Assembly: GCF_963921235.1 (NCBI RefSeq)
Contig: NC_086108.1
Location: 80,974,001 to 81,038,000 of the forward strand
Source: Mobula hypostoma
Lineage: Eukaryota
Reading direction: 5' to 3'
DNA: 64,000 nt
The first letter of the stretch is position 1; every line of letters starts with the position of its first letter. Below are positions 1 through 55,800 of this stretch, in pieces. The position numbers were made by a program, and so were the translations under genes. Below the pieces are notes generated by a model. The model ran no database searches. It was not told the origin of the DNA and worked only from the letters and a program-made list of their open reading frames with translations.

Positions 1-279
1 CTCTAGGAAGAGGTACAGTCGATGTTATGGGCCGAGACCCTTCGTCAGGACTTCCCGTCCCATGACCCTCTCATATCCCTTTTGCCAATCAACTGTCCAG
101 CTCTTGGCTCCATCCCTCCCCCTCCTGTCTTCTCCGATCATTTTGGTTCTCCCTCTCCCCCTCCCACTTTCAAATCTCTTACTAGCTCTTCCTTCAGATA
201 GTCCTGACGAAGGGTCTCGGCCTGAAACGTCAACTGTACCTCTTCCTAGAGATGCTGCCTGGCCTGCTGCGTTCACCGG
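1..279 (+). mobile_element. Penelope-like element terminus with partial inverted copy (1-52) and hammerhead motif
   Basis: Near-identical to PLE tails at 13570-13790 and 27670-27895; 1-52 is the reverse complement of about 200-251. Confidence 0.85.
200..235 (+). ncRNA. Minimal type I hammerhead ribozyme motif
   Basis: AGTC CTGACGA AGGGTCTCGGCCT GAAA CGTC AACT: intact core, one stem I mismatch. Confidence 0.7.
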
Positions 280-281
280 TA

Positions 282-49800: not shown

Positions 49801-52800
49801 CACCAAGTAACCCAGCTCCACAAACTCATCATTTTTGGGACAACTTGACAAACTTAACCAAGCAACATTTCTTTGTTGTCATGAAAATATTAGGAGTTCT
49901 AGTCATTATATATTATTCAGGCTGTGACAAATCTGGGACTCTGGTATCAATCTGAAAGGCTATAAACAAGTCAGATAATCTCATTTTGAGAACAACTCAA
50001 AGTAAATCAATTAATTGAGGACTACAGTATTTGGGCCAGTCGGTGGTGTAATGGCATCAGCACTGGACTTCGAGGCGGATGATCCCAAGTTTGAATCCAG
50101 CTGGGTGCCAACCTGGACAGCAGCAGCAGTATTTGTGCAGAAGGCCTGGCAATCTACTTCTGTATCTTGCCAACTACACTATCCATAGGGTCACAGTGAC
50201 TCGACGGCATTCAACAACAACAGTATGAGTATGCATTTAAAATCTAAACAAACTTGTTGATGTCTTTATTACCTGTAGCAACGCTCTTGCAGTTTACAGG
50301 GTCTACTTCAGCTGATCTCAAGTTAGGCATAATTTGTGCTTCCAGTGCAACTTGTGCTCGTGAACGAGTCCGACGTGATACTTGGAAAATGTAGAAAAAT
50401 ATACCACGTTTTAAACAAACAGCAAGTAACTAATCACATTTACCCCAGGGGACAATACAATATACCAATGATTTTCCATAAAGTTGGTGATCAATCCAAG
50501 TTATATTGAACAAAGCATCTGTGAGCCTAGATTCCAACCCAATTGTCATTTTTTAAAAATTAATTTTTTATGCGTTTCTACAATACAGCAACAGAAAAAA
50601 CCATCAACAAAATGGAGATTTATACAGTGCAAAACAATCGTGTCCAATATATAATTCATAAGAATAAGGAAAAAGCACCCAAAATAAAATCATATAAAGT
50701 TAGGGTCCTCCCCACCCTCCCACTATAAAACCCCAGGCCAAACATTTCTATGTACAATTGTCATTTTTAAACTACAGCAATCTTACATGGATTTTTTTTT
50801 AAAAAAAGGAAAAAAACAGCTAAAATCAATTTGATTAATGACCCAATTTCCTTTTCATACCTAATGCTGCACCAGAACCCTGGAGACCAAATTAGTACTT
50901 CTGTTACCTAACAATCCCATTGTAACCCAGCCATCACCTTTGACAATGACCATTAATATACCAATAGCACCAACAAACTGCCCCATTATTATTGTGGAGT
51001 TTGATATTCATGCAATCTGATCATTTCACTTCAACAGCAGAAATTCAATCAATATAACAATTTTGAATGAAATTTTATACATGGAATAAAATATTGAACT
51101 CTCTCTTATGGCTAGGAGGGCGCTTTTGCTTAAATGGAAGGACGCTGTTCCGCCTAACCATGCTCAGTGATTACGGGATGTTATGGCATTCTTAAATTTA
51201 GAAAAGATTCGTTGTTCAATTTCTGATTCTAACCAAGATTTTCAAAATTTGTGGGGGCCGTTTTTAAATTATTTTCATAATCTTTGATTTCCTGTTAAAG
51301 TACAGAAGCTGGTTAATAGCATATTTCACTATCTGATAAGGTTTTTTTTTCTTTACCAAACAGCTTTGACTTTAGTAGTGGGGTATAGATTTTAAAAAAA
51401 TATAAATTGTTCATATTCTAACATATGAATTAATCTAATCTATACGAATACAGGTGTCCCCCGCTTTTCGAACGTTCGTTTTACGAAACCTCACTGTTAT
51501 GAACGACCTACATTCAGTTCCCTACTTTTGCTTTCAGAAGGTATTTTCACTGTTACGAAAAGAAAGCAGCCGCTCTCTCCCGGATTCGGAACGGCATTCT
51601 CACCGGCATTGCTTAAGCACGTGCCTGTGAGCAGCAGTTAGCAAGATGAGTTCTACAGTATTGGAAAAGCCTGAAAGAGCTCGTAAGGGTGTTACACAGC
51701 GTAAAACTAGACATAATTAAGCGTTTTGATTGTGGTGAACGAAGCAAGGGCAAAGTGAGTTTGGCTTGTGGAAGCTGACGAAGATGATGTTGAAGAGGTT
51801 TTGGCATCCCATGACCAAGAACTGATAGATGAAGAGTTGATGCAATTGGAAGAGGAAAGGATAACAATCAAAACCGAATGCAGTAGCGAACTGAACGTGA
51901 AGCAACTGTGTGAGATTTTCGCTGCAATGATAAAGTTCGACTTTAAGTTTGAAAGGGTACGTCGGCTTAGGGGATATTTGCAAGATGGTTTGAGTCCTTA
52001 CAAAGAACTGTATGAGCTAAAAATGCGCGAGGCTCAGCAGTCAAGCAAGCCTTCCACATCAGCCACAACAGACAACGAACCTCGATCTTCGACATCGAGG
52101 CAGGCAGTCATAGGAGAAGATGAGCTGCCTGCCCTAATGGAAGCAGACAACGATGAGATGACACCCCAGTGTCCCACCACCCCAACCCCCAGGCCGCGGA
52201 CAGATACCAATTCGTTGAGAATGCAGTGATAGCTGGGAGGCACACAGCACATCTTTAAAAAAGCCGAAATAAACATGCTAATTAATTAGGTGCTGCCGGG
52301 CACGTAATTCTCGGCCCAGATCAGAGACAATGCAATCGGCAATCACCTTTGATCTGGGCCGACATTTACGTGCCAGGCGGCACCTAATTAATTAGCTTGT
52401 TTATTTTGGCTTTTTTCTTAAAGATGTGCTGTGTGCCTCCCGGCTACCGCTGTACCCCTGCATGCTTCGCGGATCAGTATCGGTCGGCGGCCTGGAGGGT
52501 GGGAACCACTGCATCACCCAAACTCTGATGACTCAGTCTAACACACCATCATCAGTGTGCTCGGCGCTGTCCCAATTCCGGTAAGTGATACTGCACTGTA
52601 CATACATTATTTCTACTTTATATCGGCTGTGTATCTTACGTGTTATTTGGTATGATTTGGCAGCTTCATAGTTTAAAGGTTACTGGAGAGTGTTTTGCCA
52701 ACAGCGCTTGTGAGAGATTTTCTGCCGAGAGCGCTTGCGCCGGTTTTTGCCGAAAGTGCTTGCGTGAGATTTTCGCTATGGAGAGCAGTGCAGTAATGAT

Positions 52801-55800
52801 TATGGAAAAGTATTTCTACTTTATATAGGCTGTGTATTTATCATATCATTCCTGCTTTTACTATATGTTACTGTTATTTTAGGTTTTATGTGTTATTTGG
52901 CATGATTTGGTAGGTTATTTTTGGGTCTGCGAACTCTCACAAAATTATCCCATATAAATAAATAGTAATTGCTTCTTCGCTTTACGACATTCCGGCTTAC
53001 GAACCGTTTCATAGGAACGCTCTACCTTTGGATGGCGGGGGGAAACCTGTATAGGGTAAGGAGTTTGTTAATGTGATTCAATATAATGTACCTGGTATTA
53101 TTATATTTTTTCTTTTGTTTTATAATATGTATTTTCTTGGACTCTGTATTCTTCTATGTAGAAATTAATAAAAGTATTGTAAAAGAAAGAAATATTGAAC
53201 TTTTAATAAGATTTGGTGATACCAGTGCCGGTCTTCTAGTGGATTGTTATAGCACACTCTCTCAACTGAAAGCACCACTGGCCAAAACAAAAGGAAGCCT
53301 TCACCTCAGAGGTAGAAACTGAATAATGAGGAGGAAAATGAATTAAAGCTCATTAAGCACTAGCTTTCAGAAACACACCGGTACCCTAGACTTACAATTC
53401 AGACAAATAATTAAATCTGCTGTCAACTGGAAGTGAGATGGTCAGGTCTTCAAACTCGCAGAAATTTGTGTAGTTTAAAATTTTAAAAGGAAGCAATACC
53501 TCAAGAATTGCATATACTATACTACCTTAAAGTTATTAAGATAAAGATGTGAATTAAGTGCAGTTTAGTAAATAGTAACATTAGTGTTACCTTCATCACC
53601 ATCAAATACAGGTTCTAGAGTATTCATCACATGAAAAGATAAACAAAGTCTATTAGATTCCACACAAAATTAATTCATCAACTCTCTCACCCCTTCCACA
53701 ATCTTAATTGGTTACAGACAAATGAGTCAACTGCACTTCAATTTATATTTAAACGTATGAGATCTCATTTCATTGGGGAAACCTGAAACATTTAACATTG
53801 CTTCAAACACAACAATGAAATCAATTCAAAGCGTACAAAAGATCCAATAAACTCATTGTTGATTCTCCAAAAGCTACTGCTATCATCCGGCAGGAGAGCA
53901 AAGATACAAACTTCCAGCAAAATGAAGTCTGAACGTTCTTGGAAATGGAGACCTTTCAGGAAAAGTTTGAAATTCAGATGGAAATATTTAATCATACCAC
54001 TCAAATCTGACACCTTTATTTTCCAATGACAAAAACATACTAAATTTAAAGCTGCCAATTGCAGTGATAGCTACAAAAACCAAGTGATATTTTAGTGGAC
54101 ACCAATATTATATTTGATATAGAATCTGTCTATTCGAAGGTCAATTTATGTTTTCTCATGCCTTTTCCTGCCTGAGATTGCCAACTTCTGGCAAGAGTAC
54201 AATTCTTAATCTATCAGTCATTCTCAAACAAAAACACCTTCAGTACATAAAACTCGAGAATACAAATATCAGACTATTTGATTACTGGGGAACTAATCAA
54301 TGTGGAAATGTCACGGCTGAATAATAGCAGCTAAGTCCAGTAAAGGGGATTCGCCAATCAGCCATAAAAATATTGTACCAAATAAGAGTCCTGATGAAGG
54401 GTGTCAGGCCGAAACGTCGACTGTTTACTATTGTCCATTGATGTTGCCTGGCCTAATGAGTTCTCCAGCATTTTGTGTGCGTTGCTTTGGATTTCCAACA
54501 TCTGCAGATTTTTCTCTTGCTTGTGATTGTACAAATAAGTTTGTTTTTCTGAGTTATATGCCAGTATTGGAGTGAAAATATTTTGCTGTTATCTGCAAAA
54601 ACCAGCAGATTAGTATTTTCATACCAAGACCAGCAGCACTCTCCATATTCACTTAAGTGAACCTGTTAATGAGCATGTCTATTTAAGACACAGACGGAAT
54701 GAAATTCTCTTACGGCTCAGTCTTTGAAATGCTTTCTAAGAATGGTGGACGAGAGCCTTTGACAGATTCTTGATAAACTTGATGAACTGTTATTGAGAAT
54801 AATGGGGAATGCGGAGCTGAGGTTACCATCTATTTTATAAAATAACTAATGCAGAAATTTTCTTGTCAAGCTGTACCAAGGAACATATTTTAATCAGCAT
54901 CCTTTCTCCAATCTTGGCACTAAGTTTGTTAATCAGTTTTATGTAAAAGATAACTAAATGGAAGGAGCAATTAATATTGACTGAAAGCTCACTATCGTCA
55001 TTATTTTCTGTTAATTTCCTTAACGTCTTGTATACAAAGAGGGTGGAGCTTAGTTATGATGGCACTAAATGACGACTCCTTTGTCATGGAAACAGCTTTA
55101 TTTCCATCTTTTATATCTCTATATTTCCCTTTCAGGGTTCTTTTGAAGACCCTGACCTGGAGTTACACGCTGACTTTGGTTCTTTATGGGAATGGGACCC
55201 GCTCTCGGGGTTTCACGACTGGCCGTTATCCGACATGCCAAGGATGCGGCCTAAGAGCTTCGCTTGACTTTGGAGGCCCGGGACCCTGTGGCTCTGGAGA
55301 CAGGCTGATCAAAGGTCGGTGTCCCAGCAGGAGATATATTTCCTGAGGGTCAGACACCCTGAGCCAATAGGCTGATCGTGGACTTATTTCCCAGCATAAT
55401 TTACATATTACTATTTAATTATTTATGGTGCAACTGTAACGAAAACCAATTTCCCTCGGGATCAATAAAGTATGACTATGATTGGTGTGTCGTGGGAGTC
55501 GGAAGATCTCTGGTCATGTGCCCAGAGACCAGAGATCTTTGGGCACAGAGCTTGGAAAAAGTGACGCAATGGACTTTTAACATCATAAACCAGCAAATTG
55601 TTTGTTATGTCTCCCCCCTTGCTGTGAAATGGAGACACCTCTTTCTCCCTTATTAGTGAGAGAGACCCTGTGGTATGTCGAATACTGGGTGAATGAGTAG
55701 TCTTTGGGGTATTGCAAGTCTGTGTCTTTACTGTACGCTTGAGTGCTTGGTGGTGGGTGCCGATGCTCTTTTTTTTGCTGGTGAGGGGAGCTGGGTGGGG

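Follow-up and report, generated by a model that had tools for sequence, protein, structure and literature searches.

The many hammerhead-like motifs in a 64,000-nucleotide stretch of the Mobula hypostoma genome (NC_086108.1, positions 80,974,001 to 81,038,000; the whole stretch is called the window in the following) raise the question whether they are working ribozymes or passengers of a mobile element. An earlier note on this DNA, made from the letters alone, had assigned them to the minimal type I hammerheads of Penelope-like elements (PLEs) and had proposed a very large, partly still functional ribozyme family that annotation would miss. Our analysis places the motif in the end repeat (pseudo-long terminal repeat, pLTR) and 5′ untranslated region (UTR) of a 3.5-kb PLE, and we consider it probable that this minimal type I hammerhead is under selection only in the replicating master elements, that it cuts conditionally as a protein-assisted dimer, and that the roughly half a million dispersed copies are passengers decaying like their flanks.

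Motif positions are numbered from the first A of AGTC (position 1), and the predicted cut lies between positions 32 and 33. An ungapped scan for the 36-nt motif found 18 window copies at up to 10 mismatches, where 20 simulations with a first-order Markov background gave no match at this threshold and about 0.1 per window at 11–12 mismatches. Using a profile search we obtained 20 matches and none in the reversed control, which added a weak match at 60910 (E 1.4e-4) and a copy at 2975 that begins at motif position 22. All 19 positions listed earlier thus carry the motif by scan and profile, the copy at 2975 being the one addition. The catalytic core CUGANGA...GAAA...UH is complete in 7 of 19 window copies, and those with all 11 core nucleotides are exactly the seven that had been named (200, 9296, 9347, 23567, 23631, 39081 and 54387). 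Their coordinates hold to within a few bases, except that 23631 is the start of the core and the motif itself runs from 23627; the cut predicted after 9378 is correct and equals motif position 32. Both stems are fully paired in only two of the seven, 9347 and 39081, the latter with a GUU triplet. At 200 and 23567 the closing pair of stem I is absent because of CpG decay, and stem I retains 2/4 pairs at 23627 and 3/4 at 9296 because of inversion junctions, the insertion junction breaking stem I of the 23627–23662 motif. Stem II at 54387 has 3/4 pairs. The copies with an intact core and the head-to-head insertions are as follows.

9347–9382, forward strand: best minimal hammerhead, with stem I 9347–9350/9379–9382, core CUGACGA 9351–9357, an extra A, stem II 9359–9370 with a G·U closing pair, GAAA 9371–9374, palindrome ACGU 9374–9377 and the predicted cut after C9378
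39081–39116, forward strand: core and both stems intact, GUU triplet, within a 5′-truncated pLTR copy at 38961–39207
200–235, forward strand: core intact, closing pair of stem I gone, in the forward arm 48–287 of an inverted pair with 17–52 (reverse strand)
54387–54422, forward strand: older copy, core intact, stem II weakened, beginning at motif position 1
9288–9480: single head-to-head insertion, with a reverse arm (motif 9296–9331, ending at motif position 44), a short junction piece and a forward arm to the tail end (+134)
23505–23760: single head-to-head insertion, with a reverse arm from −25 to +98 (motif 23567–23602) and a forward arm from +4 to +134 (motif 23627–23662)
18483–18706: older head-to-head insertion, with motifs 18545–18580 (reverse) and 18575–18610 (forward), both cores mutated

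With 20 profile matches per 64 kb the window is about 1.6 times as dense as random stretches (141 per 730 kb), and the locus is therefore not special.

All three subfamily consensuses carry the palindrome ACGU at stem III (15.1–16.1) without a loop, motif position 12, the extra nucleotide, is an A in 125 of the 131 copies aligned, and helices I and II have 4 bp each in the predicted fold. The features of the published metazoan consensus fit, with the pair closing helix II varying as given below, and so does the place within the element, which bears out the class that had been proposed; the motif is the minimal type I hammerhead that Cervera and de la Pena (2014) described, and is likely self-cutting. 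Exact intact 34-nt copies number 45,139 (backward controls 0), comprising 38,661 with U11.1 and 6,478 with C11.1, so that helix II is closed at 10.1–11.1 by G·U in the former and by G-C in the latter. The G·U pair is fixed in the young tandem described below and is also present in published rows (PMC4209133, supplement). CpG decay as the sole source of CCTGAAA was rejected for the young subfamily, where this form is fixed in a tandem whose units are 99.4% identical and whose other CpGs are preserved, and is six times commoner than CCCGAAA; in the old subfamily it is decay. Sampling 133 evenly spaced 10-kb stretches on 8 large contigs with a profile built from the sequence 3′ of the cut gave 213 copies (control 0), which extrapolates to about 5.6e5 copies of all ages (bootstrap 4.7–6.5e5), and a relaxed hammerhead descriptor was passed 48 times against once in the reversed control. 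The family is indeed very large. That annotation would miss it holds for the ribozyme, as an Rfam scan of the window gave no hammerhead even at E<=5; repeat annotation likely finds the element, the young family alone making up 5% of the sampled DNA, and would just not label the ribozyme. The same Rfam scan matched mir-310 at 5650–5725, where an old copy ends in a 3′ hairpin, at 33 bits against a gathering score of 48, which is likely chance.

The carrier is a Penelope-like retrotransposon. Two window copies terminate long segments with reverse transcriptase (RT) and GIY-YIG homology. When the 3.48-Gb genome was searched with the RT, 81,544 first-look candidates came up; 107 of them were scored, and 20 of the longest open frames were examined. 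One locus (L096, G000:C12:173174300-173184299) is a head-to-tail array with motifs at 1426, 4941 and 8454, its 3,515-bp units being 99.4% identical, with one hammerhead each and open frames of 935 aa. Within the unit the hammerhead lies 295 nt past the preceding stop codon and 170 nt ahead of the next ATG. The single open reading frame (ORF) combines RT with a C-terminal GIY-YIG domain, its Atlas neighbours are RT/GIY-YIG clusters, and a CX4CxxC linker precedes the GIY-YIG domain (CKRNKCYIC at residue 925 of the L097 frame). Linkers of the form CX2-5CxxC have been assigned to the Neptune and Nematis clades (PMC8557442), and by this linker the element would be an endonuclease-containing (EN+) PLE of Neptune/Nematis type. 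Tandem or partial tandem arrangement, an inverted 5′ copy and an optional tail of 30–40 bp are all present. The L096 array also offers a natural context where a cis dimer might arise. An ATG start within CUGAUGA, as in the anole element, was rejected.

The motif is spanned by 131 of the 206 copies that have full context. Clustering gave four groups with 47, 38, 6 and 4 members, the remaining 36 copies (small clusters) being excluded, and three consensuses were compared. Between subfamilies the motif is identical at 32–34 of 36 positions, the sequence upstream at 13–20 of 30 and that just downstream at 6–8 of 16, with differences mostly at the tolerated positions N7, loop II, 11.1 and N17. In the replicating lineage the motif is thus kept more than its immediate flanks, and compensatory stem pairs were not seen. 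Among the inserted copies of the old subfamily, non-CpG changes affect 32/374 core sites (8.6%) and 185/2099 downstream sites (8.8%, P=0.92), and CpG changes 13/36 (36%) and 104/258 (40%, P=0.72), the loss of G12 included. The old core mutates at the flank rate, and the inserted copies therefore look neutral; the whole core is retained in 41 of 47 young copies vs 9 of 38 old ones. A third, fairly young subfamily was also seen (6/131 copies, about 8% divergence) with a changed loop II and a different 3′ flank, at random loci such as L044, L030 and L083.

Opposite-strand neighbours in the window (9296/9347, 23567/23631 and 18545/18575) were considered as ribozyme dimers and rejected. The insertions at 9288–9480, 23505–23760 and 18483–18706 are each a single event with a target-site duplication of 14, 14 and 10 bp, and the arms of inverted pairs are mutually complementary, one being the antisense of the other, which makes an active dimer between them impossible. 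The 9347 motif itself sits in an arm of a 43-bp inverted repeat, either strand of which folds into a long duplex; the predicted duplex of 9288–9480 reaches about −120 kcal/mol. Same-strand partners within 4 kb were found for 0 of 20 strict copies (1.33 Mb sampled). A short non-coding, tandemly repeated unit of the non-LTR retrozyme kind was rejected on the same count and because the tandem observed is a 3.5-kb coding unit. Head-to-head structures with junction palindromes are already known for PLEs (PMC3846280), and opposite-strand pairs 100–700 bp apart have been described for the metazoan PLE hammerheads (PMC4209133). At 9331–9347 the junction contains an additional 11 nt from the core/stem II region in reverse orientation, resembling an RT restart or template switch there.

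We mapped the ends of 116 young copies, of which 4 were cut by a stretch edge, leaving 112 for 3′ ends, and 19 more were dropped because the break was an internal indel, leaving 93 for 5′ ends. The 3′ ends fall at 79–107 in 62 of 112 copies and at 127–145 in 48, and 2 run into the ORF; in each of the seven two-armed insertions for which the two arms were measured, a short arm is joined to a long one. At the other side, 40 of the 93 5′ ends (about 43%) lie at −18 to +18, over the 5′ half of the ribozyme, at 0.0166 per nt vs 0.0012 further upstream (14-fold, P 1e-19). The cluster is found also in non-inverted young copies alone (16/45, 7.9-fold, P 4e-7), in young copies from random stretches (15/41) and, at −10 to +19, in 78 of 204 copies of all ages, where ends of old copies are less exact. 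It lies 15–50 nt upstream of the cut site. At the cut itself a 5′-end peak hinted at by a few copies was not borne out genome-wide: nested patterns starting downstream of the cut gave 100,686, 96,625, 91,944 and 89,753 counts, and with substitutions removed there is no excess (about 1,550/96,625, 1.6%, in the 4 nt at the cut vs about 1,550/100,686, 1.5%, in the next 4 nt), in a comparison that counts truncations or indels and in which small indels, scored differently per interval, could mask an excess under about 1%. In nearly all copies RT has thus read through the cut site, and it tends to end shortly after; with 5′ ends upstream of the cut and no excess at it the complementary DNA (cDNA) was likely made from uncut RNA. 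These ends agree with an in vitro study of the anole element Poseidon PAc of Anolis carolinensis (Frangieh et al. 2024, PMC11167929) in the two start sites, the use of both strands and the uncut template.

The predicted folds allow a mechanism to be proposed. The monomer folds at −10 kcal/mol with core bases paired to the cleavage site (z −0.4 vs shuffles), and once 15 nt of the upstream flank are included, the prediction is a hairpin spanning −14 to +16 which masks the core by joining the pyrimidine run to CUGA and GAAGGG. The active swapped dimer is predicted at −9.5 vs −20 kcal/mol for two monomers, tertiary terms not included. A lone RNA would then sit in the inactive hairpin, in the model about 10 kcal/mol stabler than the active dimer, and be off by default; given this predicted inactive fold, cutting would need help, such as the protein of the element, and would belong to a stage other than template preparation, for example the trimming of tandem or read-through transcripts. 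By analogy to the anole PLE in vitro, the two 3′ end points (about +98 and +134) may be internal RT start sites, with priming from nicks on both target strands. Uncut RNA would be the template, synthesis would stop or be resolved at the predicted hairpin, and short inverted microhomologies there would join the two arms. The low predicted stability of the dimer agrees, as far as modelling goes, with the weak dimer activity reported in PMC4209133 and the protein dependence of cleavage in PMC11167929. A further step, which we put forward tentatively as a possibility, is that the hammerhead region is mainly a structural switch and RT stop rather than a template cutter, its core-masking hairpin keeping the ribozyme off, ending the cDNA and setting the arm junction.

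A number of observations weigh against these readings. Beyond the immediate downstream flank, a stretch of 43 nt is likewise conserved between subfamilies (29–35/43), partly because the copies were found by that sequence, so that conservation is not unique to the ribozyme within the element, and no compensatory stem change or covariation was seen among the three consensuses, which differ at just 2–4 of 36 sites and thus offer little variation. The young core has slightly fewer non-CpG changes (3/463, 0.6%) than the downstream sequence (46/2423, 1.9%, P=0.07); subfamily variants in the flank may explain this, and slight selection on the young core is possible. The bounds of −18 to +18 were fixed after inspection of the data, and inverted pairs contributed each of their arms to the count. 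The masking hairpin is no stabler than shuffles (z −0.2). Three of the 93 young copies begin at +31, +33 and +33, one of them being a solo copy (L214, G000:C1:1755416-1758459) with a clean target-site duplication that ends exactly at the predicted cut at +33; some cut templates may be copied, with L214 as a candidate product, and an RT jump across the cut would in principle hide cleavage.

The main rival for the 5′-end cluster is a real 5′ end of the transcript, either a start site or a splice acceptor beside stem I, in which case the short copies would be run-offs of a leader and the hammerhead would be uninvolved. In all three subfamilies a pyrimidine run resembling a 3′ splice site leads up to an AG located at stem I or immediately before it (motif positions −30 to +2, e.g. 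39051–39082), the intron of D. virilis Penelope extends up to the 5′ end of helix I (PMC4209133), and target-site duplications abut −13 to +8 in several non-inverted copies. However, the ends spread over about 36 nt instead of one base, more than half of the young copies extend further upstream, and the flanks of non-inverted copies are unrelated, with no shared spliced exon. In four sequencing contig sets cover was seen; they are silent on ends, strand and splicing at the AG before stem I. On balance we regard this explanation as possible, if rather doubtful.

Self-cleavage might instead set the 5′ end of the copied RNA, as proposed in PMC4209133, by processing tandem transcripts to unit or circular templates, RT then crossing the cut by ligation or a template jump. 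True tandems do have one hammerhead per unit, the few copies beginning at +31 to +33 would fit, and circle ligation would leave no end at the cut site. We hold this route to be unlikely in view of the missing genome-wide excess at the cut and the position of the cluster upstream of it, and since in the anole element hammerhead mutants insert normally in vitro, with no reads ending at its cut site (PMC11167929).

Quite unlikely, in our view, is a partly functional family of dispersed copies whose intact members in host transcripts would pair in trans, cut, and be kept or purged by host selection. With 45,139 exact copies partners are ample, the deficit of changes in the young core would be in line with it, and weak in vitro cutting has been reported for dimers of a related motif (PMC4209133). 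Against it stand the loss of core bases including G12 at flank rates in old copies, the dimer predicted about 10 kcal/mol below two misfolded monomers in stability, the 20 strict copies without a same-strand neighbour, and published in vitro work in which, of 9 natural Xenopus retrozyme dimers tried, only 1 cut (bioRxiv 10.64898/2026.07.22.740005); for the dispersed copies, the partial function proposed in the earlier note is unsupported. That the likeness to a hammerhead is incidental, the 36 nt being kept as a protein-binding or promoter sequence, could account for the absent covariation, the conserved adjoining sequence and the unremarkable monomer fold, but is very improbable given the agreement with the published metazoan consensus at the same element location, the subfamily changes mostly at tolerated positions, and the equivalent anole motif, which cuts and is rescued by a C3G/G8C swap (PMC11167929).

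Our favoured reading, a ribozyme of the element lineage with decaying passenger copies, can be set beside known systems. Like the metazoan PLE hammerheads of PMC4209133 the motif has CUGANGA with an extra nucleotide, GAAA-CG-UH without loop III, a short helix I, a U-rich 5′ flank, a pLTR position and mostly solo copies; helix II is short here (4 bp) and G·U-closed in the commonest young form, although G·U also occurs in the Xenopus, cichlid and coelacanth rows of that paper. Descriptor hits there amount to about 4,000 (coelacanth) and 9,000 (Xenopus) vs 45,139 exact copies here, by methods that differ. With Anolis PAc the element shares a hammerhead about 100–135 nt upstream of two 3′ end points (tail), the use of both target strands and the uncut RNA template. 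It belongs to another clade, and the anole ORF starts inside the hammerhead, whereas here the ATG lies 170 nt downstream and the young core mostly reads ACG. For PAc, cleavage requires protein, two RT start sites are used, hammerhead mutants are without effect on insertion and uncut RNA is the main substrate; the available text describes no clustering of 5′ ends at the ribozyme (PMC11167929). The Neptune/Nematis EN+ PLEs (PMC8557442, PMC3846280) have in common with it the RT, the CX2-5CxxC linker, the C-terminal GIY-YIG domain, partial tandems, the inverted 5′ copy, a one-sided 30–40-bp tail, junction palindromes and target-site duplications, and differ in that the target sites seen here are AT-rich unique sequence and not microsatellites. 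Animal non-LTR retrozymes likewise have type I hammerheads related to those of PLE pLTRs, but are tandem arrays of short non-coding units, whereas the short copies here are solo or head-to-head truncations of a coding element (bioRxiv 10.64898/2026.07.22.740005).

The ribozyme class, its location and the dimer hypothesis (2014) as well as the element type and the inverted/tail anatomy are thus already known, and the role of the PLE hammerhead is treated as an open question in the literature (PMC8557442, PMC11167929). We found no paper that maps PLE 5′ ends against the hammerhead, and the copy number and the neutral-decay test were likewise not found in print; nothing was found on shark hammerheads of this kind or elasmobranch PLEs, in searches made outside Repbase/Dfam entries and subscription papers, which may cover the family.

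The remaining features of the window are listed here.

11217–13844: two-armed 5′-truncated PLE insertion; reverse arm 11217–12023 with motif 11279–11314 (G12>A), forward arm 12023–13844 with broken RT/GIY-YIG and motif 13709–13744 (G8>A, G12>A)
25204–27951, forward strand: 5′-truncated PLE with RVT_1 (E 1.7e-5), interrupted at 26869–27462, pLTR motif 27815–27850 (A9>C)
17–52, reverse strand: degenerate motif, G12 and A13 altered, cut by the window edge
935–970, forward strand: degenerate motif, old subfamily
2975–3053, forward strand: old copy truncated inside stem II, new to the list
5772–5807, reverse strand: old-subfamily motif, truncated near position 4–6
16449–16484, forward strand: degenerate motif, old subfamily, G12>C
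46616–46651, reverse strand: old-subfamily copy, truncation inside the core
47524–47559, forward strand: degenerate old-subfamily motif, 4 core changes
60910–60997, forward strand: very old remnant, weak match (E 1.4e-4)

The PLE at 25204–27951 is enclosed by 25001–25203 and 27952–28996, which we take to be a DNA-transposon remnant whose frames resemble hAT transposase, a Pfam scan giving no match. Broken RT frames (RVT_1) of the long interspersed nuclear element (LINE) type and a Tc1-like transposase piece (HTH_Tnp_Tc3_2) were seen at 41258–42886, 58242–58697 and 1958–2518, and no host gene was recognised in the window.

In summary, about 1e5 young insertions offer ends that agree with a single in vitro study, together with a measurable 5′-end cluster over the 5′ half of the ribozyme, and there is a clear contrast between selection on the element lineage and the neutral decay of its copies. 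As the copies decay neutrally, large hammerhead counts in animal genomes should be read as functional host ribozymes only with caution. If the tentative switch and stop role is true, the young insertions would amount to a natural map, at base resolution, of how PLEs cycle, and would give the first in vivo-scale evidence for PLE cDNA made from uncut RNA.

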